Shown here piece by piece: positions 3,530 through 49,519 of a DNA stretch of 64,000 bases (the stretch's first letter is position 1; the number at the start of each line of letters is the position of its first letter). Under the pieces are notes generated by a model that saw nothing but the letters and a program-made list of their open reading frames with translations, did no database searches and was not told the DNA's origin. The stretch lies in IMG/VR virus record IMGVR_UViG_3300047476_000597, positions 1-64,000 of that record; one strand, written 5' to 3'. The position numbers and the translations under genes are program-made. This stretch comes from a virus.

Positions 3530-4634
3530 ATTTTAGTTGTAGTTTTACAATACCGTGGTTCTTGTATGAATCTTCAGAGCTAGTCCACACTCCTGATTCT
3601 AGAGCCCAGTGCAATGACTGTATTATCTTAGTAACACCTGTATATTTTCTACCAGATACATGGAACCCTCTCCATGCTCTTTCTACATCATCTGTAGACA
3701 GTTTGAGTATAATAGGGTCATTGAATCCTGTAGTATCTATGAATACAAACATCATAGGCATTACTGTATAACCCTCTAGTTTGTGTTGTATCAACCACTC
3801 TTTTACACCGTAGTCATAGATAGCTGCTTGTATGTAGTACCCATACTTTAGATACGACCTACCAAGATCTTGCTCTTCATCAGTATCGTAGCTGGTTTTC
3901 CAATCTACCAGCTGCACTGTTTTTGTTTCATGTTCTACTATGAGTTTGTCTGGCATACACTTGTACTGCTTACCTAGTATTTTGAACCTAATAGGCAGCT
4001 CATGGAACACCTCTTTGTACTCGTCTGTCTTAGCATTAACATACTCAGAAGAGAATGGGTGTTCTTTGAGTTTGTTGACCTGTTTCTCGGCACGTTCTAT
4101 TTGGTTGGGTACTACTACTGTCTTACCTATAGTATCTATACATTCATCGTAATACATCTGGCCACCTTCTGTCTGAAACTTGTTCAGTATCCACTCTGGC
4201 TCTTTGTCTTTAAACGCTACTATTTGTCCTTTATAGTTGTACTGAGTACGCTGTAGTGCATCACTGAATATAGTAGCAAAAGAGTCTTGCTGTATCTTTT
4301 CACCATTGTCATTAGCTCGTAGCCCTTCTAGTGTTCTTTTGAATAGATTGTCACATAGGTCACCCATCTGTCCTGTAGGCTTAGGAGTAGATGCTATATG
4401 GAACTTACTATCGAACATACCTTCTTCACCGGCTAACAGACAGTGTATTAGACTACCCATTGTGAGTGTATCTGATTCTTTCTTGTTGATAGTTTCTCCG
4501 AGTACATATTCTTTGAAGAACCCGGCCCTATCATCGTTATACTTTTTGAGTACTGAGTAGGAGATGTCCTCCTTGATGCTTCTATATGTTTGCTCCGAGA
4601 TTCTGGTTTGATTAACCTTTTTTGTTAGTATCAT
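3516..4634 (-). CDS. PD-(D/E)XK exonuclease (RecE/DUF3799-like)
   Basis: ISYSVLK, GSLIHCLL, HELPI..KCMPDKL..VDWKT, YGYYIQAAIY. Confidence 0.85.
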   Translation of the reverse strand: MILTKKVNQTRISEQTYRSIKEDISYSVLKKYNDDRAGFFKEYVLGETINKKESDTLTMGSLIHCLLAGEEGMFDSKFHIASTPKPTGQMGDLCDNLFKRTLEGLRANDNGEKIQQDSFATIFSDALQRTQYNYKGQIVAFKDKEPEWILNKFQTEGGQMYYDECIDTIGKTVVVPNQIERAEKQVNKLKEHPFSSEYVNAKTDEYKEVFHELPIRFKILGKQYKCMPDKLIVEHETKTVQLVDWKTSYDTDEEQDLGRSYLKYGYYIQAAIYDYGVKEWLIQHKLEGYTVMPMMFVFIDTTGFNDPIILKLSTDDVERAWRGFHVSGRKYTGVTKIIQSLHWALESGVWTSSEDSYKNHGIVKLQLKYGTK

Positions 4635-14562: not shown

Positions 14563-16565
14563 TGTTCTTCTTTTTGTAGTTCATAATAATAATCTCTAAT
14601 ATTTGCATATGCCTCTAGTATCCGCTGTTCTCTACCTTCTTTAATATCTGTTACTAGTTCTGCAACTGTCGGCTTACCTTGATCGTCTGTAGCTGTTATT
14701 ATATACAGCTGTGTCTTTTCTTCAAACAGGTTCTGTTGATTACCAGTTGTTACAGATATTATGGTACCTATCTTATACTCTAGAGCAGGATTATTACACA
14801 ACAGCTGCAGGGATTCTCCTGTCAGGGTACTGGTGGTATTTTCTGTTATAACACTTTGATTGTCAGCTGGTTGTAGGATTTCCTTGTCGCATTTATCTAC
14901 TATATTTGCGACAGTTAAACCAGCTTGACTGAATGTTACCTCGTCTTCTACCCATCTACTACTAGTTATTAGCTTTTCTGGTATTCCCACTAGCTGTTGC
15001 ATTTGTTCTAATAGAGTATCTTCTTTCTCATCTGTATAAACAGAACCTTCTACAGGCATTTTGTATGAATGACCAGTGTCTGACTTGTCAAAACCTGTTT
15101 CTTTTAGTTTCTCACTCCACGAATCTCCTTTTGGATAATAGCTAGGATCACTCATAACATTCTCATCGTAGCAGTTACTGCAAAACAACTCACTACCAAA
15201 CATTCCTACTCCACAGCTAATACATGTGCCTGTAATATCTTCAGATTTTTCAGTACTAACAGCTGTCTCTTCTATCTTAGGGATTGTAGCTACTATGATG
15301 TGGGCTTTTATCCAAGGGTCTACTATGTCTTCAGTTGTATCCCATGGAGCTGGTTCGTCTATTATATCACTCTCACCAGAGGTATCTAACCATTTCTTAC
15401 TCAGACCATAGCGTTGATTAAAATCCCTACGCAATATATCAGCAAACGGCTCCTTTATCTCATCTATAGGACCATCCCACCATGTTTCTACAGCTGGTTT
15501 ACCATATTGATTTTTGCCTGGTTTTACTGATGTAGCTACTGTTATATTCTTATCTGGGTTATCTGTCTTGTGTATGCTATTTATATAGCTATTTATTGCT
15601 ACTTTTATTCCTTGTATATCTTGTACACTACTCTCACACAACAGCTGCTCTTCTTCTGACATATCTGCCTCTGTCTTATCGAATCTTCTACGTACTACAA
15701 GAAAATGGCTAGGTGCCTCAGTATTAGCAGACTCTTTCATCAGATTATCCGGCATCACTGTAAGAGAGATAAAATCGCAGTTACTGAATAAATACTTTCT
15801 AGCTGTTCTATTAGTAGGAGTATCTAGAAATGCATTAGTTACCAGATATGCTAACAGACCACCATGGTTGAGTTTACTAATACCTTTGGCAAAAAAATAG
15901 TTATGTACCTTGCCTGTGAGATTCTTGTCTGCTATTGTTGGATCAAACACTGGGAATGAACCATATGGTGGATTAGTAGCTACAAGATCATACTGACCAT
16001 CTTCACTCTTATCAGATTCTTCAAAACCTTTATTGTGCACTGTATAACGACTCTTAGCTGGTAGTGTACTCATGACACATTCTAACACCTTGCTAGTCAG
16101 CATATCCTTCTCATACATAGTAACCTTCTGTAGATTCTCTATATTCTGAATAGCTGACAGAGCAAAAACACCACCACCAGCTGCAGGGTCGTATACTGTT
16201 TTTATATCAGCATATTCTTGTACTATCTCCATGAATGTATCAACCACTACAGCTGGTGTGTAATATGCATCTAGTACTGCTGCTTTTATTGATGCTACTA
16301 CTTCTTTGTACGCTTTTTCACTCAGTTTATCCTGTAACAGATCATGCAGCTGTTGTATTACTGGTCGTAGTTGTTTATCTCCTTCTGCTACTGTTATCCA
16401 CTCTTGATCGTTGTATGGATTGTACAACAGTGCTTTTACAAACCCCCAACCTTTAAAAGATAACATAGTTTCTACTTCCTCTTCAGAAAGAGTCAAACCT
16501 TCGTGCCATTTAAAAACTGCTCTTATTGCTTCTATATTATTTTGTAGTGCTTGTTTCTGATTCAT
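14559..16565 (-). CDS. Amino-DNA methyltransferase (N6A/N4C), N-terminal part of a DarB-like protein
   Basis: AYYTP, motif I YDPAAGGGVF, motif IV TNPPYG, HNYFFAKG..GGLLAY; acidic linker with CxxC..CxxC. Confidence 0.88.
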   Translation of the reverse strand: MNQKQALQNNIEAIRAVFKWHEGLTLSEEEVETMLSFKGWGFVKALLYNPYNDQEWITVAEGDKQLRPVIQQLHDLLQDKLSEKAYKEVVASIKAAVLDAYYTPAVVVDTFMEIVQEYADIKTVYDPAAGGGVFALSAIQNIENLQKVTMYEKDMLTSKVLECVMSTLPAKSRYTVHNKGFEESDKSEDGQYDLVATNPPYGSFPVFDPTIADKNLTGKVHNYFFAKGISKLNHGGLLAYLVTNAFLDTPTNRTARKYLFSNCDFISLTVMPDNLMKESANTEAPSHFLVVRRRFDKTEADMSEEEQLLCESSVQDIQGIKVAINSYINSIHKTDNPDKNITVATSVKPGKNQYGKPAVETWWDGPIDEIKEPFADILRRDFNQRYGLSKKWLDTSGESDIIDEPAPWDTTEDIVDPWIKAHIIVATIPKIEETAVSTEKSEDITGTCISCGVGMFGSELFCSNCYDENVMSDPSYYPKGDSWSEKLKETGFDKSDTGHSYKMPVEGSVYTDEKEDTLLEQMQQLVGIPEKLITSSRWVEDEVTFSQAGLTVANIVDKCDKEILQPADNQSVITENTTSTLTGESLQLLCNNPALEYKIGTIISVTTGNQQNLFEEKTQLYIITATDDQGKPTVAELVTDIKEGREQRILEAYANIRDYYYELQKEEQ

Positions 16566-17280
16566 TTTTTTTATTTTTACGTAGTTCTCTTCTTCTTTTA
16601 TTTTTACAATTTTTACAATAACTTTCCAATCCGTTTCTTTTTTTGTTTCTCTTATTTTCTAAAAAAGACTCTGGTAAAAGATATTCTTTACATATACTGC
16701 ATTTATATTTTCCATTGTTCTTTTCTTTTTTCTGTATTATTTTATTATAGATTACTTGATCTTCTTTTGTTAATATATTATGACATGCAAACTCACCATG
16801 ACATTTAGTAGCTAGTTCGTTATACCACATAGCTGCCTCTACTTCTGTGTTAAAATTTCTAGTATAACTTTTATGTTTACCTATACATTTCGTTATCCAT
16901 GTCCACTTTTTCTTTAGTAGTCGGTATTGTACCCCTGTATATTTAGAAGATGTAAGTATCCCCTTTCTTGTTTTTATTTTTAGTTTATTTCCAGCATTTT
17001 GTCTTACAGTAGCTTCTCTTAGATTTGATCTTTGATTATTTAAACCATTATGATCTATATGATCTATATGAATAAAAGAATCAGCAGGTTTCATAATTGC
17101 TCTATGCATTGATATTTTAGGTCCTCTTCCTTTTTCGAGTCTTCCCATTACATACAATGTATTACTATTAGCACATTTGCAAACATGCCAGTTTAATTTG
17201 TTTAACCAGTCATAGTCTTCATCTGATACTTGAGCATAAAGACCGTTTCCGTTTTTTCCATTTAATTTTATCAACTTCAT
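16537..17280 (-). CDS. Free-standing HNH homing endonuclease with AP2-like and Zn-finger domains
   Basis: AQVSDEDY, MHRAIM..IDHIDHNGLNNQRSNLR, SSKYTGV..FNTEVEAAMWYN, CSIC..YCKNC. Confidence 0.88.
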   Translation of the reverse strand: MKLIKLNGKNGNGLYAQVSDEDYDWLNKLNWHVCKCANSNTLYVMGRLEKGRGPKISMHRAIMKPADSFIHIDHIDHNGLNNQRSNLREATVRQNAGNKLKIKTRKGILTSSKYTGVQYRLLKKKWTWITKCIGKHKSYTRNFNTEVEAAMWYNELATKCHGEFACHNILTKEDQVIYNKIIQKKEKNNGKYKCSICKEYLLPESFLENKRNKKRNGLESYCKNCKNKRRRELRKNKKNESETSTTK

Positions 17281-17282
17281 AA

Positions 17283-17387
17283 AAATAGTTTTGCCGGTTT
17301 AGGTACAGCTATCTAGTCCATAGCAATACCCTTACCGGCAGTTTCTTTGTACCTAGGACTAGTAGGTATTTTATCCCTACAAAGGTA
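17283..17387 (-). promoter_or_regulatory. Promoter (-7 TACCTTTG) plus two-hairpin kissing-loop leader of the HNH gene
   Basis: -7 box 17380-17387; loop CUAGUCC is complementary to loop GGACUAG of the second hairpin closed by GCCGGU/ACCGGC. Confidence 0.65.
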
Positions 17388-17394
17388 CTATTCT

Positions 17395-17733
17395 TTATTT
17401 ATTTTTCAACATTTCCAATGACATTATTTTAGCTATTTTACCCCACATTCTGTAATTTCTGAATGTTGTTTTTATCCAGTACACACCATCTTCTTTCATC
17501 AGGTCTCTACTGTCCCATATCCAGTTATTTACATGGTCAAATAGCCATGGACTATCATCGAGATTCTCCCATTCCATTTCTATTATCTTTCTATCTGATC
17601 CCCCATACCCACTCTTTGCTACTAGTATTTGGCCTTTGTAGGTTACATTCTTTTTGGGTGCCAGATGTCCCCATGTATCTTGATATACTGCTTCCTGATA
17701 CTCTTTTATTGGTTCCAGATGATTTAGTCCCAT
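17395..17733 (-). CDS. Hypothetical protein (likely start ATG 17733)
   Basis: ORF track 17395..17754; internal ATG preferred. Confidence 0.65.
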   Translation of the reverse strand: MGLNHLEPIKEYQEAVYQDTWGHLAPKKNVTYKGQILVAKSGYGGSDRKIIEMEWENLDDSPWLFDHVNNWIWDSRDLMKEDGVYWIKTTFRNYRMWGKIAKIMSLEMLKNK

Positions 17734-17873
17734 ATCTTTATTGTTTTTATCCAACCTGTCCAGCCTAACAGATACTCAACTTGTTCTTCTTTTAGTACTA
17801 TTCCTTCATGCCACTGAAACACTGCTTCTAGTGCTTTGATGTTATCCTCTATTACCTGTTTCTGTGTTCTCAT
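17724..17873 (-). CDS. 49-aa mini-protein paralogous to the N-terminus of the DarB-like methylase (not in ORF track)
   Basis: Translated by hand: MRTQKQVIEDNIKALEAVFQWHEGIVLKEEQVEYLLGWTGWIKTIKIWD; 21 of 38 aligned residues identical to the 14559..16565 N-terminus. Confidence 0.75.
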   Translation of the reverse strand: MRTQKQVIEDNIKALEAVFQWHEGIVLKEEQVEYLLGWTGWIKTIKIWD

Positions 17874-18756
17874 ACTATTTCTGTTTTTAGTAACGTTATT
17901 CCGTTTTCGTATATATGAACACTATCTTCTATCCATGTTTCTGCTTCATCTGTTACATAGTGAACAGCTTCATTAACAGCGTTTTCACCTTTTGCACCAC
18001 CAGATACCCCATAGTCTAGTTCATCAGTATCTATTTCTACTGTTATTCTTACTGTTATATCTATCTCTCTAGTTGTCTTCATTAATCTTTTATTTTATAT
18101 TTACCAGGAAACTTACTATTTATCAGATACTGTAATTGACTAATAGAGAATACTTTATAGCCTAGCCAACCATTTTCTAGTATTTCTTGTAGTCGTTTAC
18201 AGTTTCCTTGTTCTAGCAGCTCATTTTTAATAACAGCTATATCGTCTAATGCAAGAATCTTCATTGCTGTTTCCTTACGTATTTGTTTCATCTTTGTATC
18301 GTTTTTTATTTAAACATTCTATAGCAGCTTTCTCAAACACAGTAAGGTTTATTGTTGGTGCTTGATATACCTCTTGTTGTTGAACAGTTAGTTCACTCAG
18401 ATCTACATCAGCTCCATTTCTTATTCGTGTGATTAGCTTTCTTTTTCTTTTGTTGTATTCTGGTATTGCTTGATCTATTGTCAACATTACACAGTTACCT
18501 AGTTTTTCGCATGTTTTTATATTAATACACTGGTTACAGCCACTCAATACTACCCACTGTTCTTGTTTACTCATTTCTTAAACTGTTCTTTGTGCTTTAT
18601 TATAGTGTCTATAACATCTTCTTCATACCATGCTGTACTATGAGCTATTGGTTGCCATTTTTTGAACCAACCTGATATACCAGCTGGTCTGTATACTGCC
18701 CAATATACTGTCTTGTCCTTTGACATTGCTTGTTTTCTTATTTTATATGTATACAT
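17870..18756 (-). other. Four small hypothetical CDS (17870..18082, 18082..18291, 18275..18574, 18571..18756)
   Basis: ORF track, coupled junctions. Confidence 0.65.
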
Positions 18757-18767
18757 GTTGTTTATTT

Positions 18768-19628
18768 TTAAAAGGGCAGATCATCAGGAACAGTAACATT
18801 ATCCCACGGCATGGATCCTCGTACCCATTCTCCTGTTATCTTATCTTTTTTACCACCTGGTAGATCTTCCCATTTTGTTCTAGTTTCTTGCCATATTCTA
18901 GCTCTTTTCCATTTTATCTTCTCATGGTAGCCGTTATCATTCTCTACTATTGTGTTTATCCACCGGAACATATTACCATGATTCCACATTCTGTTTTGGT
19001 ATGCAGCAGCTGCCATGTGTTCTACCTTAAGAATATGATGCCGGAATGGGTCTATATCTTTCTCATATTGTTGTGCTTGCTTGCCTACTAGTACTATTGG
19101 TAGACCAGAGAAGAATACATTAATAACTTCACTGAAGAAGAACGACATAAATTCTGCCCATATAGCTACATGACTACCTGGTGTATTCTCTACTACTGTG
19201 AGTGAGCTATTGAGTAACAGAACATGTTCTTCTGTTAGCAGGTAGCTGATGTCGTTCCTCTGTTCCATATCAGGATCAAAACCGTACTCCTCTGTCAAAG
19301 CCCCGTAAAACTGTTGGAGTGACGGTTGTGCTACATTAGTGTTTGAGCAGTCCAGTGGTATGCCGTTACTAACCTTTACAGCATTTTTACCTATCTGTTT
19401 TATGGTAGGATATGGATCCATGAGTAGTATAATAGCCTTTACCTTCTTACTGTCCACTAACTGAAAACTACGGAATAATAGAGCAGAATCTGGTATCACC
19501 GTTTTCTTATTAGCCACTTCTTGTTTTAAAAACGCCAGTATCTTATCGAACCTATCTGATGTAATGAACGGCTCCAGATAAACTAGCCAGCTGCCGAGTT
19601 GTTCTCTTAACCTATCTGTTACTATCAT
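18768..19628 (-). CDS. ung: Uracil-DNA glycosylase family 1-like, divergent motifs
   Basis: VKAIILLMDPYP, VLLLNSSLTV..PGSH..W, VGKQAQ, KVEHMAAAAY. Confidence 0.8.
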   Translation of the reverse strand: MIVTDRLREQLGSWLVYLEPFITSDRFDKILAFLKQEVANKKTVIPDSALLFRSFQLVDSKKVKAIILLMDPYPTIKQIGKNAVKVSNGIPLDCSNTNVAQPSLQQFYGALTEEYGFDPDMEQRNDISYLLTEEHVLLLNSSLTVVENTPGSHVAIWAEFMSFFFSEVINVFFSGLPIVLVGKQAQQYEKDIDPFRHHILKVEHMAAAAYQNRMWNHGNMFRWINTIVENDNGYHEKIKWKRARIWQETRTKWEDLPGGKKDKITGEWVRGSMPWDNVTVPDDLPF

Positions 19629-20163
19629 CTGTATAGTTTTTATAGTTCATTGATTCTTTGGCTACATTATCACCATTGTATTTACTGTCTGGTTTTTTAT
19701 CATAAGGTACAGCTACCTCGCCTCTTACTTCACTAAACTCTATCTGACCTATCTTCATACCGGCATACACTCTGGTTGGTTTTATTACTGTTATTTCTAG
19801 TGTCCAGCTGTTACCGCTGAACCCTACATCTCCATAACCAGCTGTCACATGTATTGATATACCCAACCTACCTATAGAAGATTTCCCATTAATACTAGGT
19901 CTGTATAGTCGACTATTAACACGTTCTACAGTAGAACCTAGATACAATATTCCTGGTATCAATACCATACCCTGCTCAGAAATAGTCATTGTAGCTGTCT
20001 CATTATGTTCTTTGGCATCTAATATTGATGACGTATATACTCGTATGGTATCACCAAGACACACATCGTAGCTGTTAGGATTAACATGCTCTGGTTTGAA
20101 TGGCTCTATTACTATATCACCTGTCTGTATTGCTTCTATTATTGCTGTATCTGATAGTATCAT
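19612..20163 (-). CDS. dcd: dCTP deaminase
   Basis: MILSD, VNPNSYDVCLG, GKSSIGRLG, TAGYGDVGFSG..TLEI, GMKIGQI, SKY. Confidence 0.9.
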   Translation of the reverse strand: MILSDTAIIEAIQTGDIVIEPFKPEHVNPNSYDVCLGDTIRVYTSSILDAKEHNETATMTISEQGMVLIPGILYLGSTVERVNSRLYRPSINGKSSIGRLGISIHVTAGYGDVGFSGNSWTLEITVIKPTRVYAGMKIGQIEFSEVRGEVAVPYDKKPDSKYNGDNVAKESMNYKNYTDDSNR

Positions 20164-20468
20164 TGTCCTGTGTTTTCTTCTGTTATTGTATATTGTTCAT
20201 ACTCATCTTTCCACTCTTGTTCTGTTATTAGGTACCCTTGTCTGTTTATGTATCTATATCCAGCTACTATACCATACCAACCATCATTATCATCTATTAT
20301 TGTCCATATTCTTTTTGGGGATGTAATAGCAGTATTTACTACATAAACAATGTCTGGTCCATAGGTATCAAAAAAACAGTTACCAAAAGATCCTTCTTCT
20401 GTATTTGGGTTATCTTCACATGTGTATTTCTCAAAAAACACATCGTCACTCTGTTTTTCTTGTGTCAT
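20160..20468 (-). CDS. Conserved hypothetical phage protein
   Basis: FDTYG..IWTIID..IVAGYRYINRQGYLITE motif. Confidence 0.7.
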   Translation of the reverse strand: MTQEKQSDDVFFEKYTCEDNPNTEEGSFGNCFFDTYGPDIVYVVNTAITSPKRIWTIIDDNDGWYGIVAGYRYINRQGYLITEQEWKDEYEQYTITEENTGQ

Positions 20469-21127
20469 AGTCCAAATGCTTTTATTGTGTACTCAAAAGG
20501 ATTACCTTCTATTGCTTTTATCTGTCGTAACATTTCTTTTGCTATTTCTTGTATTTCTAATTGTGCATGATTGTCAGCACGTAGGTTGTAAAAATGCATG
20601 AATGATCTCCAGTTAAAAGACACATCAGCTGTTATCTGGCTGTTGTATGTTTTAAAGAACCTAGCAGACTCTTTTGCTCTTTTTCTACCTAGTACTGGTG
20701 TTAGTTCTTCTAGACACTGATGATACAGCTGGTTGCCTTGTTCTGTGTATAGCTGTAGTGCGTGTTTCCATGTGTCAGCTCTTTCTTCATTTATATACAC
20801 ATCATCTGTTGGCACATCAAAATCATCTGGCAGATAGTACTTATCTTCTTTCAGCTCTTTATACCTAGCAGATTCTCCGTTAATAGGAACACCTATACGA
20901 TGTTTTAACATATGTATATGGGTTGCTATATCTGTAGTAACAAGAAAATGGATCATACTCTTTTCAAACGGAGTACCATGCCCACTATCTGCTAGGTCTT
21001 TCAGCAGTTTTGGTATTCTTGCTTCTTTATCTGGTGTTAGTTCTCTATTTGTTGATGTCCAAGCTGATAAAGAGTGCGTATTATCCCCACCGTAGTGGCC
21101 AATTAGTTCTACTGTATTACTATTCAT
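20465..21127 (-). CDS. thyX: FAD-dependent thymidylate synthase ThyX
   Basis: GHGTPFE, HMLKHR..NGESARY, AKESARF, NWRSFMHFYNLR..HAQLEI. Confidence 0.92.
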   Translation of the reverse strand: MNSNTVELIGHYGGDNTHSLSAWTSTNRELTPDKEARIPKLLKDLADSGHGTPFEKSMIHFLVTTDIATHIHMLKHRIGVPINGESARYKELKEDKYYLPDDFDVPTDDVYINEERADTWKHALQLYTEQGNQLYHQCLEELTPVLGRKRAKESARFFKTYNSQITADVSFNWRSFMHFYNLRADNHAQLEIQEIAKEMLRQIKAIEGNPFEYTIKAFGL

Positions 21128-21841
21128 GTGTTGTTAGTTTTTTATCTAGTTCTTCACATTCCTCTAGTAGCTTGTATACTGAGTGTTTTTCATGCTGTGG
21201 ATAATTTTTTAACATTGCTGATAACCACCAGTGCAGCTTACCTACCAGCTGTCTCATTTCAGGAGCTGCTGCACAGAGTTTAGCATTTTTCTCTGCTTGT
21301 TGTTCCCCTACATCAAAGGTATCTAATACATTAGTAGTACATAGGTTTTCGTCTTTTGGGTCTGTTGCACTTATTATCCAGTATTCTTTGCAGTATTTCT
21401 CAGCATACCATTTGTTATTCTGTTCCATGTTACAGCTTTTCTAGATGACTAATACTCACACATCCTGATATACCTTCTACATTACATACTGGATGTTGTA
21501 CTCCTACATACCATACAGCTGATGTTATGGTGGTGTCTGTTGGGCCATATCGTTCTCCTGTTGGTGTTATTACTGACCAGTATCTTACTGGTGTACCTGG
21601 TATTATTTCTTGTTCTTTCATGCTGTTATTAGTTTTCTAGCCATGTTTTTAGTTCTGGTATTGTTCTAGTTTCCAAGGCTTCCCACACAAGGTCGTATAT
21701 AGTTCCTTGGTAGTTTCCTTCATCTTCTTTGAGCATTGTTACTATTGCTTGTATTAGCTCTCCTTTTATAGTAGCTGACATCTCTTCTGATACTTTTTTG
21801 TGATACTCTTTATATGCAGATTGTTTACCTATATTCTTCAT
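21120..21841 (-). other. Three small hypothetical CDS (21120..21428 with NAKLCAAAPEM motif, 21430..21621, 21629..21841)
   Basis: ORF track. Confidence 0.65.
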
Positions 21842-21869
21842 ATATTATTTTTTTACTATGTTACTAGAT

Positions 21870-22200
21870 ATGGTGAGGTTTTCCTGACAAGACCTTTCCT
21901 TTTTTACTAGGAGTATCTTACACAGGACCTGAGAGGAGATTATATAGAGTATCCTCTCTGCATCAGTAGCTACCTCAGTCTAACAGTTCACCACGCTGTC
22001 TTTCCTGAATCTCGAGGGAATGTGGTATTAGCAGTTTCTTGTCAGCCCTGTTGTCACCTTCAGACAGAGCAGGTATTTATGCCACATTCATGCTTCTTCC
22101 TGTGTCCAAGCTGTTCCTTACGGGGACCACTGCAACTACACAGGCTTTCTGGTACTACTGTGTTTATTGATTTATCAGTTATACTCTGTTTCTGACTGTG
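21870..22200 (-). ncRNA. Candidate large structured non-coding RNA (or RNA-primed origin)
   Basis: ORF-free gap, GC-richer than flanks; nested complementary blocks 21964-21974/22151-22160, 22018-22025/22082-22089, 21884-21892/22037-22045. Confidence 0.5.
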
Positions 22201-22217
22201 GGGGACAATAACAGTAA

Positions 22218-22341
22218 TAAGAAAACCCCAACCAATGAAACCGTGGAAAGGTTTGGTCGGGGCATCTTATTTCCCTTACTTTTATTATTAGTTTATGATT
22301 GTCAGGACTACTTTCCACGGTTTCTTGACACAACAAAGATA
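22218..22341 (-). promoter_or_regulatory. Promoter (-7 TATCTTTG) plus kissing-loop leader ending in a terminator-like hairpin
   Basis: -7 box 22334-22341; 14-nt perfect complement 22311-22324/22237-22250, the latter in the loop of CCCCGACCAA/UUGGUUGGGG followed by UUUUCUU. Confidence 0.7.
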
Positions 22342-22395
22342 CTATTTTACTGTTGTTTCCTAATAGATATTTTCTATAGATTACCTGTAGCTGGT

Positions 22396-23127
22396 CTATA
22401 GATCAACCAGTTGTACTTTTTCTGTCTTCTTAGCTCTGTAGTTGTATATCTCTTGTATGAGTGCTAGATACTGTACTACATTAGCACATTTCACCAGCTT
22501 GCGTGATTGGTATGTCATCTTCTCATTAAAGAATATATCGAATATGAACGATGGATTTTTGATAGCCCTCATCATAGCATAACAGAAACTACGGTCTTTA
22601 TAGAACGGCACATACTGACTCATCTTTACTATCTTACTGGCTATATCTTCTGCTTCTAGGATATTATCAGCAACGAACTGACCTCTAGAGAACTTGTCCT
22701 GTTGTTCTTTTATATTACCACTACCAGTGAGTAGGAATAGATTGGTTGTGGTACCTAGTCCGTACTTCTCTTTGAACTGCTTATATACTACATATTCCCT
22801 ATTACCAGTTGCTATGTAGCTGGTTATATAGTCTTTGTGGTCCCACGGTCTGTTATGAGTATTCAGTGCTTGTACATCTTCGATTTTAGCTCCTTTTACT
22901 ACGTAGTAATATATAGGCTTACCCATCTTAGAAAGAGCTGTAAAACGATGCTGACCATCTATTATCTCCATTTTCTCATTAACCTGTATAGGAGACACAG
23001 CCATGTACTCAGACATTGTTTTTATCAACCTGTTTACATGCAGCTGGTCTACTACTCTATTGCCACCTATTATTGAGAACTTCTTATAGTCGGTTGTTTT
23101 CTCTATTGTCATTCCTGTTGTACTCAT
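22396..23127 (-). CDS. ParB/Srx-like N-terminal domain protein
   Basis: GNRVV..HVNRL..SPIQVN..IIDGQHRFTA. Confidence 0.8.
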   Translation of the reverse strand: MSTTGMTIEKTTDYKKFSIIGGNRVVDQLHVNRLIKTMSEYMAVSPIQVNEKMEIIDGQHRFTALSKMGKPIYYYVVKGAKIEDVQALNTHNRPWDHKDYITSYIATGNREYVVYKQFKEKYGLGTTTNLFLLTGSGNIKEQQDKFSRGQFVADNILEAEDIASKIVKMSQYVPFYKDRSFCYAMMRAIKNPSFIFDIFFNEKMTYQSRKLVKCANVVQYLALIQEIYNYRAKKTEKVQLVDL

Positions 23128-23141
23128 TGTTTAGTTTTTTA

Positions 23142-23699
23142 TTAGTTATCAAACCACATTACTACTCTTACATCTGCTGGTTCTCCCAGTGTTTTTAATA
23201 TTTCTATCTCATTAAAGAACCACTCACCTAAAAACTCCCTGATAGTAGTCTGTTTCCCTTTTCCTTCTTCTGCTATAGCTGCTCCATTAAAAACATTAGG
23301 GCTTTCCTCTTTTGTATACCTACGGTCTTCAAAAACACGATCATAGTCATACTCTATTAGTTCTTTTAGAGTCACATTGTTAAAAGAGTGATAGTTACCA
23401 TCATTGAATAGTTCTTGTTTTACTGATTCTTCATAGTCTCCCATACCAGAAAAGTAGCTGGTTACTTTATTTAGATACTCACTGTCTTCTGGTAGTCCCC
23501 TAGTTTCTCCTGTTATACACTCTATATGACTGTAGTTTCTTACATCAGCAAGAAAACCAAAAATGCCATACGACCTTATACTAAAAGGCTTCGATGTATT
23601 ATTCCATGTAGCTGTACCTGGATCGAATATTTCTTCTGTTACTCGTTCCCACCTATTGTTTATTTTTCTCTCTGCAAAAGCATGTATATCAGCTCCCAT
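23142..23699 (-). CDS. Conserved hypothetical phage protein (MGxDIH...VxWFDN family)
   Basis: MGADIH, RSYGIFGFLADVRN, RGLPED, YHS..TLKEL, VRVVMWFDN. Confidence 0.75.
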   Translation of the reverse strand: MGADIHAFAERKINNRWERVTEEIFDPGTATWNNTSKPFSIRSYGIFGFLADVRNYSHIECITGETRGLPEDSEYLNKVTSYFSGMGDYEESVKQELFNDGNYHSFNNVTLKELIEYDYDRVFEDRRYTKEESPNVFNGAAIAEEGKGKQTTIREFLGEWFFNEIEILKTLGEPADVRVVMWFDN

Positions 23700-23735
23700 T
23701 GTTTTAGTTTTTAGATTGTAGTTTGTCGAATGTTT

Positions 23736-24458
23736 TTATTTGTATCTCCATTTAAATCCTCCAGCAGTTTTATAGTTTTTTACTTTTTTACATACTTTTG
23801 CTATAGCATGTGCTGTTGTAGGTAAAAATAAACTAGCTTCTTTAGCACTTTTCCATTCTTTTATTATGTTTTCTTTTTCATCTAGTTGTAATACAGCTAT
23901 AGACCTATGATCCATCTTTTTTCTATTTTCAGGATTAGATAGATATTTTCTTTTAGCTTCTGACATTTTTCTACGTCTTTCTGGAGAAAAATAGTAACCT
24001 ATTTCTGCCTTAGTTTTTAGAGTTTTTTCTATTTCTTCTTTACTTCTTTTATATCCTTTTAGGCCTTTAGATATATTTTCTTTATGTTTTTCTGTTATTA
24101 TTTGTTTACTTCTAGCTGCTTTTATTTTATTTATAGATTCTGTTGCTTGTTTTATGATACCTCTTTCACCAGTAGGTGATATATTGTAACCGCAGCTTCT
24201 ATTATGTGCATTGTATATTTTAGCCCAATAGTGTTCTCTTTCTTTCAGTTTTTCTATTTCACATATTTCTATTCTTTCAAACTTAAAAGATTTTTCACCA
24301 TATTTATTCCAAGCTCCTTGAAGATGTTGATTTACGTGTCTATTACATTTTAACTTTTTTCTATGCCCATCAAACCATCTTCTAGTAAAACTATTAGCAT
24401 AGCCAATATATACCTTGCCATTTATTTTGTTTATAATACAATATATACCTGTTTCCAT
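23736..24458 (-). CDS. Free-standing GIY-YIG homing endonuclease with NUMOD-type DNA-binding repeats
   Basis: TGIYCIINKINGKVYIG, LQGAWNKYGE, GYNI, RRKMSEAK, KTAGGFKWRY. Confidence 0.9.
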   Translation of the reverse strand: METGIYCIINKINGKVYIGYANSFTRRWFDGHRKKLKCNRHVNQHLQGAWNKYGEKSFKFERIEICEIEKLKEREHYWAKIYNAHNRSCGYNISPTGERGIIKQATESINKIKAARSKQIITEKHKENISKGLKGYKRSKEEIEKTLKTKAEIGYYFSPERRRKMSEAKRKYLSNPENRKKMDHRSIAVLQLDEKENIIKEWKSAKEASLFLPTTAHAIAKVCKKVKNYKTAGGFKWRYK

Positions 24459-24460
24459 AA

Positions 24461-24556
24461 AATAAGAATCCTTTAAAGGTTCACAGCGGCAACTGATCCC
24501 CTTTAAAGGATTGATAATGTTTTTAATAGTTGTTGCCGCAACTTAATGCGAATATA
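24461..24556 (-). promoter_or_regulatory. Promoter (-7 variant TATATTCG) plus kissing-loop leader of the GIY-YIG gene
   Basis: GCGGCAAC in hairpin 1 is complementary to GUUGCCGC in the loop of a 13-bp stem (24467-24479/24500-24512). Confidence 0.65.
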
Positions 24557-24575
24557 CAACTACATTATAACATTT

Positions 24576-25724
24576 TTAGTTTTTACTCATTTTATTTTCT
24601 TTATCGAATCCTTTTAGTTTAGGTAACAGCTCAAAAATACCTGCTTCTACAGTATACTGAAGGTCTGCTTGCATATTCTGTGCTTCTTTAGTTACAGCTT
24701 GCATCATACCAAAACTACTTTCATCTGAATCTCTATAAAAATGCTTGAGAATAGCTTGTTTATGGTTATCTGTTATCTGCAGCTCTTTTCCTATTGTCTC
24801 TATTATACTAGTAGGATGATTTAGTTTATCCTGAGTATACTTAGCTAGTTTGCTTACAAGATTTCCTAGATATTCTTTACTAAGATACACTTTTACAGCA
24901 TCTTGAATTTGACTAAGAACAAGCTCATAGTTTTTCTGTCGTGTGTTTTCTGACCAGTCCACAAAACCTTCGTTTATCATTGCTCCTATATGCGTTTTTC
25001 TTATTCTAGCATCTTTGTCAATAGCTCCGTTGTTACATATTTTAATCATTGCTCTTCCGGCTATTTCAAAAGCCCCAAGACCTAGTTCTGAGTTAGATAC
25101 TATAAAACCAGAAACAATACCTTCATTTAGTTTTGCTTTTTTGTCAACCATATAGTTTTGTAACAACTCCTCTGCTTTATGATGTATCTCAGGAGCTATA
25201 ACATGCAGATACATTCTACTGTCTGTTATCTCTGCTTTTACTATCTCTACATTGATACCTGTTTTCTGTATTGCCTCTAGAGCTGCTATCAGTACATCGT
25301 AGTTGTCTAGAATGTTATACCGGTTACTCAACATAGCCCTACACATATTCTGTACTCCTTCTTCTCCGTAGTTGAATGTACGTAGCAGATACTTCGTCTT
25401 TTCTTTCTTACCTAACCAGCCATTGATATTCTCACCTAGCAGCTGTGGGAACTCTGTCTTGAGTTTCTGATAATATGCACGAGGAATACCTAGTTTTTCA
25501 CTGATCTGGTCATGTGCTACATCTGTTAGGCTGTAACCTGTTTCTTCTATAGAAGAGGCTCCTACGAGCAGCAATCCACTACCTGGGTCATAACGTACAT
25601 GTCCTGTTGGTACTACCCTATCTTCTTTTATCTTATTCTGGTATTCTAGTTTCTGTACTATAGAGCCTAGTGGACTCATCATACTCATTATACTCTCTAC
25701 CTCTTGATCTATTGTTGCTGTCAT
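24576..25724 (-). CDS. DUF932-like phage/plasmid protein
   Basis: AHDQISEKLGIP..Y, RAMLSNRYNILDN, SNSELGLG..ICNNG..RKTHIG. Confidence 0.7.
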   Translation of the reverse strand: MTATIDQEVESIMSMMSPLGSIVQKLEYQNKIKEDRVVPTGHVRYDPGSGLLLVGASSIEETGYSLTDVAHDQISEKLGIPRAYYQKLKTEFPQLLGENINGWLGKKEKTKYLLRTFNYGEEGVQNMCRAMLSNRYNILDNYDVLIAALEAIQKTGINVEIVKAEITDSRMYLHVIAPEIHHKAEELLQNYMVDKKAKLNEGIVSGFIVSNSELGLGAFEIAGRAMIKICNNGAIDKDARIRKTHIGAMINEGFVDWSENTRQKNYELVLSQIQDAVKVYLSKEYLGNLVSKLAKYTQDKLNHPTSIIETIGKELQITDNHKQAILKHFYRDSDESSFGMMQAVTKEAQNMQADLQYTVEAGIFELLPKLKGFDKENKMSKN

Positions 25725-49075: not shown

Positions 49076-49142
49076 AGTTTGTCGGCATACGTTTGTCAGG
49101 AGACAACACTCATGTATACCTGTATAGCCATGGCAGCTATTG

Positions 49143-49519
49143 TGGAACCGACGGGAGTCGAACCCGTGTCCAAACGATTTTCCTCTCAAAAAAGTTACGA
49201 CTATGACTTGTTTTTACTCTGCTGTCTTCAGAGATGCTTGTGTAGCTGTTATGTTATTCGGACAACTGCTACTGTACTTTTCCTTCCCTGTGAGTTATAC
49301 ACTCAGGTATGTGTTTTGAATTAGGCTGCTACTGCAAACTCACCATACATTACTGGAGCATTTGCAAAAGCAAGATTAATTAGTCTTGCACCTTCTTCTT
49401 GACGAGCAACTTTTTTGTTGTTTGCATCTATTGTTTGAATCTATTTATTTAAAGGACTACATCCTTGTCCTTAGTCGCCTTTTCTACTATACTAGTCGCT
49501 GTCAAAACCAAACGGCCCC
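49143..49519 (-). ncRNA. ssrA: tmRNA
   Basis: 5' GGGGCCG..TTTGACAG, 3' T-arm GGGTTCGACTCCC and CGGTTCCA; G3.U70 alanine identity; tag ORF 49321..49425 after ATAGAT ending FAVAA-stop. Confidence 0.93.

Follow-up and report, generated by a model that had tools for sequence, protein, structure and literature searches.

The first 64 kb of the 133,627-bp IMG/VR virus record IMGVR_UViG_3300047476_000597 (genome G000; these 64,000 nucleotides (nt) are the window analysed here) carries, on the minus strand, an RNA leader directly ahead of a gene for an HNH homing endonuclease. On comparative sequence evidence this leader, termed leader A, is a real structured RNA: two hairpins whose 7-nt apical loops are complementary and remain so, through matched changes, in three homologous copies. 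We lean, by a modest degree, towards leader A being a member of a small family of cis-acting 5′ leader RNAs that sit in a mobile nuclease cassette and throttle translation. An earlier note on this DNA had described sites (a), (b) and (c), here leader A, element B and leader C, as sharing one architecture. The motifs of that architecture, a TAnnTT(T/C)G promoter box followed by hairpin 1 and hairpin 2, were all confirmed at the positions given (minus strand), and the apical sequences of the two hairpins are complementary over 7, 14 and 6–8 nt, respectively.

Structure and covariation of leader A

The start sites of the three elements were predicted by offset from the promoter box, as in Flavobacterium johnsoniae, where the G of the box stands at −5 and transcription therefore starts 5 nt past it (available part of PMC6847099). 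From its predicted start, leader A folds into a short hairpin 1, a linker of 9 nt, and a compound hairpin 2 made of a GC-rich 7-bp (base pair) basal stem, a 2x2 purine internal loop, and an upper stem of 11–12 bp (Table 1). Hairpin 2 has its 3′ end at −12, which leaves 11 nt between the stem and the ATG (AUG at 17280). The minimum-energy fold is also the centroid and has a z score of −3.65 against shuffles; no fold pairs the AUG or any of positions −1 to −11.

The homologues come from a distant relative, the 134,570-bp record G001, which has 53 of 173 genes in common with G000 at a median amino acid (aa) identity of 38%. The first was found among 28 ParB-like loci as a 106-nt match in locus L082, part of G001, directly upstream of an HNH gene 43% identical to that of the window; both of its loops are unchanged, and four stem pairs are altered on both sides. 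A covariance model that encoded nested stems only, and so held nothing on the loop–loop helix, then detected a third copy in G001, 2.9 kb from the first G001 copy (E = 7e-6). This copy directly precedes a 175-aa gene with a MUG113/T5orf172 domain, and its loops, CUGAUAC and GUAUCAG, are again perfect complements, as against CUAGUCC and GGACUAG in leader A.

The pairing of the loops that the earlier note had proposed for site (a) is supported by these copies. The 7-bp loop–loop helix keeps 7/7 pairs in 3/3 copies (100% paired), with three double changes, and because the model was blind to this helix, its covariation is not a fitting artefact. Over the whole three-row alignment, 92.7% of the cells are paired, and in 17 of the 32 pairs both partners differ between copies; none of 500 shuffles was as high, and slid controls paired at 26–40%. 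Double-sided changes affect 3/6 pairs of hairpin 1 and 11/19 of hairpin 2. Folded individually, all three copies give this pair of hairpins with 7-nt loops, and the centroid coincides with the minimum-energy fold (z = −3.65, −3.30 and −3.99). Counts of G-U against A-C cells (4 vs 2) were not decisive for the strand.

The matched changes would be read differently if the 7-nt words were DNA operator half-sites for a dimeric protein, for instance in autorepression by the nuclease, with each change marking a new protein specificity. The HNH-linked copies do share their words while the T5orf172-linked copy differs, and autorepression by I-TevI at operators overlapping its promoter is documented (available part of PMC2988022). 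The words nevertheless sit exactly in the loops of covarying stems, which a duplex-DNA operator does not need, and they lie 18–68 nt downstream of the box without overlapping it, so that an operator is highly improbable.

For the RNA leader, conservation also points to mobility. Leader identity between G000 and G001 is 82/104 nt (79%), compared with 303/476 (64%) for the HNH reading frame and a flank baseline of 108/187 (58%). The HNH genes have different neighbours in the two genomes; altogether the module precedes HNH_3 genes twice and the MUG113/T5orf172 gene once, each time among different neighbouring genes. The two copies within G001 carry different loop words that do not cross-pair, which fits the part of the earlier proposal that spoke of orthogonal words. 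Where that note had treated the likeness of its three sites as natural covariation, the leaders at (a), (b) and (c) proved not to be detectably homologous, so their likeness is one of convergence or analogy rather than covariation in the strict sense.

The family appears small. A refined model, R2, returned only the three known copies in G000–G003, with other hits weak (E = 1.4 and 3.2), and nothing in 353 further loci totalling 2,983,868 bases (loci L261–L293, L413, and L414 lay outside this search). An exact-pattern scan of IMG/VR for leader A gave only G001. HNH relatives were represented by 17 loci, 8 of which, with a match from residue 1, were folded upstream; the leader was present in the G001 locus only, and the best non-self HNH relative is 46% identical. 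Among cultured relatives, a search of 50,697 phage records by megablast (positions 16500–25000) and by blastn (the non-coding gap) found no match; tblastn of the 382-aa neighbour found 244 phage records, all below 60% identity. Rfam release 15 gave no match at E ≤ 1 in 16500–25000, only noise far below gathering near the leaders and the non-coding stretch, in line with the earlier statement that no named RNA family could be assigned. A covariance-model scan of the kind suggested there added the third copy, in G001, and nothing in the other loci searched.

Table 1. Features of the three elements and their genes in the window (strand − is the minus strand)
Feature	Position	Strand	Details
Leader A −7 box TACCTTTG	17380..17387	−	Bacteroidota-type; predicted start near 17375
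Leader A hairpin 1	17350..17368	−	6-bp stem TACCTA/TAGGTA; 7-nt loop CUAGUCC (17356-17362)
Leader A hairpin 2	17292..17340	−	49 nt, compound; 7-nt loop GGACUAG (17313-17319)
HNH homing-endonuclease gene	16537..17280	−	Behind leader A; PHROG 99 and Pfam HNH_3; GC 0.28 (genome 0.366)
Leader C −7 box variant TATATTCG	24549..24556	−	Predicted start near 24544
Leader C hairpin 1	24528..24543	−	5-bp stem; 6-nt loop CGGCAA (24533-24538); very 5′ end of predicted transcript
Leader C hairpin 2	24467..24512	−	13-bp stem; 20-nt apical region holding UUGCCG (24487-24492)
GIY-YIG homing-endonuclease gene	23736..24458	−	Behind leader C; PHROG 314/7168 and Pfam GIY-YIG; GC 0.28 (genome 0.366)
Element B −7 box TATCTTTG	22334..22341	−	Predicted start near 22329
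Element B hairpin 1	22300..22330	−	Weak, 5 bp; apical 14-nt segment GAAACCGUGGAAAG (22311-22324)
Element B terminator-like hairpin	22210..22263	−	11-bp GC-rich stem (22253-22263 with 22225-22235); U-rich tail (22210-22224)
554-nt gap	21842-22395		Between ThyX and ParB-like gene
Non-coding stretch behind element B	21842..22209	−	~370 nt; GC about 0.44 vs 0.366 genome

Loop complementarity against chance

The statistic used for chance was the longest stretch of complementarity linking the apical regions of two minimum-energy hairpins, scored against 1000 dinucleotide shuffles per site and against 94 gap-strands (both strands of the 47 intergenic gaps of at least 60 nt in the 133.6-kb genome). 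Leader A, with a score of 7, was matched by 1/1000 shuffles, element B, with 14, by 0/1000 (shuffle maximum 7), and leader C, with 6, by 6/1000. Common occurrence of such complementarity in shuffled controls, which the earlier note had named as a refutation of its proposal, was not seen with this statistic. A score of at least 6 was reached by 5/94 gap-strands, three of which are sites (a), (b), and (c); the other two, on inspection, lack the layout of a promoter plus two hairpins. By a stricter measure confined to hairpin loops, 0/300 coding windows reached 6. A first, looser hairpin descriptor was dropped, as 14–27% of shuffles satisfied it.

In 3 Mb of phage contigs, 7-nt loops formed 24 reverse-complement pairs compared with 14 and 16 in two internal controls, a modest excess, and 6-nt loops formed 44 compared with 44 and 42, no excess. 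Loop pairs lay outside long open frames in 16/28 cases, against 4/19 and 6/17 in the controls, a surplus that is at most suggestive of a general class. Individual look-alikes occur in unrelated phage contigs for which no diverged homologues were available. At L349:4452-4540 (+), twin hairpins with perfectly complementary 7-nt loops follow a TATTTTTG box and precede a 232-aa open reading frame (ORF) downstream of a ParB-like gene. Twin hairpins with perfectly complementary 7-nt loops are also present at L089:7031-7190 (+) and in L241 and L245; in L089 the second hairpin is a terminator upstream of a ParB-like gene.

Leader C

Leader C precedes the GIY-YIG gene and has a layout like that of leader A, with a box, a 5′-terminal hairpin, an A-rich linker, and a long hairpin with purine-rich internal mismatches. 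The sequences GCGGCAAC and GTTGCCGC are complementary over 8 nt; the minimum-energy fold leaves 6 nt to each loop proper (CGGCAA and TTGCCG), with a G-C pair closing it, and the apical word of hairpin 2 complements the entire first loop. Hairpin 2 finishes at −9, 8 nt ahead of the ATG (24458), and is followed by a U-rich run. Folded from the predicted start, leader C has z = −4.08 against shuffles, and the start codon and −1 to −8 are unpaired in all folds. The arms of hairpin 2 hold two copies of a palindrome, CCUUUAAAGG.

Neither leader C nor element B has a significant homologue in 80 ThyX loci, 28 ParB loci, the HNH and GIY-YIG loci, the metagenome set, or the second ParB set. Leader C is absent from all 80 GIY-YIG relatives, model R2, built from the leader A family, does not match it at E ≤ 10, and a comparison of element B, leader C, and the non-coding stretch with the whole of G001 gave a best E of 0.12. 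Leader C is best described as an analogous, non-homologous single case of the leader A design, and a kissing-loop reading of it is plausible.

Two observations concern the same subjects. A 10-nt palindrome, CCTTTAAAGG, occurs twice in leader C hairpin 2 (24467-24512), which leaves either arm able to fold back on its own sequence or to pair with its partner. Two GIY-YIG genes of G001 (3698-4366 (+) and 134342 (+)) have no hairpin leader, one lying 3 nt behind an ORF and the other directly after a TATCTTTG box; the leader is accordingly not obligatory for such genes.

Element B and the thyX/dcd block

Between 14 and 28 kb the genes run on the minus strand, in the order DNA methylase, HNH gene, small ORFs, dCTP deaminase, ThyX, the 554-nt gap, the ParB-like gene, a 185-aa ORF, the GIY-YIG gene, and a 382-aa ORF. 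Element B, a related design put to another use, lies in the gap and spans a promoter, about 120 nt, and then a terminator-like hairpin, with no gene directly after it. Its hairpin 1 is weak, a 21-nt apical region closed by 5 bp; the 17-nt loop of hairpin 2 encloses (22237-22250) the exact complement of the 14-nt word GAAACCGTGGAAAG at 22324-22311, with only 1–2 nt flanking the word on each side. Folded together with its flanks, the element has z = −2.9. The 14-nt duplex has an energy of −21.9 kcal/mol; in nascent RNA that still lacks the 3′ arm of the terminator, it is the minimum-energy state. From A-form dimensions, a steric estimate, the full 14-bp pairing and the closed terminator stem are probably mutually exclusive. 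As no further promoter box occurs on the minus strand between B and A, the thyX/dcd block must be reached via the element B hairpin. The order in which the pairings form, their exclusion, and this sole route to thyX/dcd make an attenuator plausible, and element B is most likely either an attenuator or a short RNA heading the thyX/dcd block, a reading drawn from one sequence only. If it works as proposed, the terminator would be governed by occupancy of its loop rather than by competition between stems.

A trans-acting role was considered and rejected: the 14-mer has no other match of at least 9 nt genome-wide, where about six such chance matches are expected for 9-mers. An exact-pattern scan for element B in viral contigs gave 0 matches. 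Relatives of the ParB-like protein at 93, 85, 70, 68, and 66% identity are present in the protein collection; these close relatives were absent from the metagenome scan (best 51%), the viral-contig profile scan, and the genome_contigs scan (best 43%).

A more ordinary explanation would leave leader A as the only dedicated element, with the hairpin of C ending the transcript of the upstream gene, that of B ending the ParB-like operon, and the complementarity incidental or, for example, a DNA inverted repeat for a protein. U-rich tails directly after both stems suit it, as do the failure to detect homologues of either, the miss of leader C by R2 at E ≤ 10, the 6/1000 shuffles that equal leader C, and the 6-nt design that does not exceed the internal controls in 3 Mb. 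Against it stand the exact 14-nt complement of element B, with 0/1000 shuffles and no other match of at least 9 nt in the genome, the start of all three sites 4–11 nt after a promoter box, their position among only 5/94 gap-strands scoring at least 6, and loops of 17–20 nt, unusual in a plain terminator. A terminator scan limited to loops of 3–8 nt lists hairpin 2 of neither B nor C, whose loops are 17 and 20 nt and whose U-rich tails are present. The ordinary explanation is doubtful, though it deserves weight.

Proposed mechanism

The setting of the leaders resembles that of Bacteroidota genes. Intergenic TAnnTTTG boxes exceed expectation in both genomes, with 15 seen versus 6.6 expected (G000) and 27 versus 10.9 (G001). 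Shine–Dalgarno (SD) motifs precede 10/173 G000 genes, not above the 8.6% of random 18-mers, and the start regions of the 173 ORFs are 58–73% A across −14 to −9, with 73% A at −12/−11 and 67% A at −3. By its composition, this SD-less, A-rich start pattern is the Bacteroidota pattern. In F. johnsoniae, initiation is favoured by A at −3, −6, −12, and −13 together with low structure from −20 to +20, and the promoter and start-region pattern of G000 agrees with the rules given there (available part of PMC6847099). The closest cellular relatives of the ParB-like protein are in assemblies of Sphingobacteriales, Chitinophagaceae, and Flavobacteriaceae. Because of the box enrichment, the SD-less A-rich starts, and these relatives, the phage looks Bacteroidota-associated. 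A sigma-70 promoter scan was uninformative (31 sites against a shuffle mean of 39).

Each leader copy consists of a promoter box, a 5′-proximal hairpin 1, and a long compound hairpin 2, with 7-nt apical loops that kiss, and the module probably travels in a mobile cassette with free-standing nuclease genes of two different folds. Within the mRNA, the leader would hold nuclease translation down, whatever the genomic context. The basal, GC-rich part of hairpin 2 would cover about −12 to −18 (leader A family) or −9 to −21 (leader C) of an SD-less start region where single-stranded, A-rich RNA is needed. Since the hairpin 2 base falls in the −12 to −20 zone, a translational throttle is favoured, and the leader probably holds nuclease production in check. 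Loop docking may set the firmness of the hairpin 2 stem. In all three elements, nascent RNA cut off just past the second segment folds into the long-range pairing. As the linker from hairpin 1 to a hairpin 2 of ~20 layers is only 9 nt, docking and the basal stem may exclude each other and so give a two-state switch. Coaxial docking seems possible only with the basal stem open or the helix sharply bent, which would make docking an activator, like the repZ pseudoknot (available part of PMC4705826). In its most far-reaching and rather speculative form, the idea is that each leader is a programmable switch with two states, suited to ribosomes that make no use of SD sequences: docking would free the −12 to −20 landing zone and so switch the nuclease gene on, copy-specific 7-nt codes would prevent cross-talk, and element B would be a terminator version, acting like an antiterminator.

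Part of the earlier proposal, that expression is licensed only from the element's own promoter, is not supported by the layout. The box lies upstream of both hairpins in all five elements (the three of the window and the two copies in G001), and with a start 5 nt past the G, read-through and own-promoter transcripts carry the same fold.

Several points weigh against the throttle. The AUG and −1 to −11 are unpaired, so that the start codon is unmasked and the leader could equally stabilise or insulate the mRNA. The steric argument is an estimate from A-form helix dimensions rather than a model. Promoters and start sites are predicted only, the phage being uncultured. The homologous copies are only three, from two phages, a number of rows at which the shuffle test is not a probability, and the nested-stem part of their alignment was fitted by the model. 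Leader C reaches only p ~0.006 in shuffles, uncorrected; the collections searched yielded no homologue of either B or C; 3 Mb of phage contigs show no general enrichment of the design; and a GIY-YIG homologue in G001, with a 3-nt gap to its upstream gene, lacks the leader.

The fold and the docking could also be real and serve RNA processing or stability instead of translation control, which seems unlikely. The hairpins and the kissing helix would then stack into a near-continuous duplex for cutting by RNase III, an enzyme that cleaves T7 transcripts at intergenic sites, or would shield the 5′ end from decay and thereby uncouple the nuclease message from the host operon. In favour of this, hairpin 1 begins within 0–8 nt of the predicted start of all three elements (the box being 4–11 nt upstream of it), leader A hairpin 2 has ~19 bp with small internal loops, and the start codon stays unpaired together with −1 to −11. 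RNase E processing and terminators are known layers of T4 homing-endonuclease control (available part of PMC2988022). Processing does not account for the constant end of hairpin 2 at the A-rich −12 region.

The conserved CAAAACUA just ahead of the start codon reads TAGTTTTG on the other strand (window 17279-17286 (+) and G001:45273 (+)), a promoter look-alike from which an antisense RNA would run through the leader.

Loop pairing need not be intramolecular. The loops might pair between molecules, in a head-to-tail leader dimer or through an opposite-strand antisense RNA that locks one loop, in the manner of Inc RNA and the rep leader of IncI-alpha plasmids. The 9-nt linker, by estimate, strains coaxial docking within one molecule, and a TAGTTTTG box is present on the opposite strand in leader A and G001 copy 1. 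This box has G at −10, virtually absent from F. johnsoniae promoters (available part of PMC6847099), is degenerate in the third copy, and overlaps the A-rich start region, which alone is enough to explain its conservation. Pairing between molecules is quite improbable, and the antisense lock that the earlier note offered is weakly disfavoured by these sequence features.

Relation to known leaders

The comparisons that follow refer to the available parts of the sources cited. RNA structures regulate I-TevI, I-TevII, I-TevIII, and segB of T-even phages, as well as mobE of phage Aeh1 and seg43(25) of Aeromonas phage 25 (PMC2988022). The leaders described here likewise place a stable RNA structure, adjoining a phage promoter, directly upstream of a homing-endonuclease gene, presumably limiting a risky enzyme. 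The gene is HNH in leader A and G001 copy 1, GIY-YIG in leader C, and MUG113/T5orf172 in G001 copy 2; the connection with nucleases drawn in the earlier note thus stands for sites (a) and (c) and for both G001 copies, and falls for site (b), where no nuclease is controlled. A likeness in form is to seg43(25), in which a very stable hairpin lies just upstream of the ribosome site and leaves it unmasked (PMC2988022). In contrast, T-even hairpins sequester the SD, while there is no SD usage here and the AUG and −1 to −8/−11 are unpaired. The T4/T-even late promoter lies inside the hairpin, so that late transcripts escape it, whereas here hairpin 1 follows the box at a distance of 4–11 nt in all five elements. 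A covarying loop–loop helix, as in these leaders, is not described for the T-even cases in that part of the source (PMC2988022).

The rep leaders of IncI-alpha, IncB, and IncL/M plasmids, such as repZ of ColIb-P9, resemble leader A in that an upstream loop pairs over a long range within the same leader, in the plasmids to set translation of a dosage-sensitive gene, with kissing as a part of that control (PMC4705826). In repZ, the loop pairs with 4 nt beside the SD, translation of a leader peptide triggers the pairing, and an antisense RNA counters it. Unlike repZ, the partner here is the apical loop of hairpin 2, at least 27 nt from the AUG (A 17313-17319, C 24487-24492), no conserved leader peptide was seen here, and the opposite-strand box is a poor candidate for an antisense promoter.

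A third likeness is to the PeSLs of T4-like phages, short conserved cassettes of a promoter and a stem-loop that stand before unrelated, variable genes and may be points of recombination (PMC4122927). A PeSL has a terminator stem-loop followed by an early promoter and occurs in many copies, whereas here a promoter precedes two hairpins, with one copy in G000 and two in G001; unlike in PeSLs, the loops of the leaders covary and stay complementary.

A literature search, which did not extend to subscription journals, brought up no account of kissing-loop leaders ahead of phage nuclease genes. Restraint of homing-endonuclease genes by structured leaders has been known only from T-even phages, where they act by masking the SD. 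The leader A family would do the same job in an SD-less phage, with a covarying loop–loop contact and movement between nuclease genes of different folds. It may offer a compact model for tertiary RNA contacts in Bacteroidota translational control, a natural set of orthogonal 7-nt codes, and a marker by which mobile nuclease cassettes could be recognised in phage genomes from metagenomes.

The non-coding stretch and other features of the window

The stretch behind element B was considered as a decayed gene and rejected, there being stops in all six frames, and as a known RNA and likewise rejected, as Rfam gives nothing above noise and the fold has z = −0.22 and −0.86. It has no significant homologue in the ThyX, ParB, HNH, GIY-YIG, and metagenome loci sets. 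A word of 15–17 nt within it (core CAGTAGTACCAGAA, 22147-22163 (−)) recurs exactly inside two distant genes of G000, at 92607-92623 (−) and 115058-115072 (+). Elsewhere in the window, a full-length transfer-messenger RNA (tmRNA) gene lies at 49140-49519 (−), with 88.7 bits in Rfam and a 28-residue tag ending in AVAA by ARAGORN, and it is the only feature of the whole window that passes Rfam gathering.

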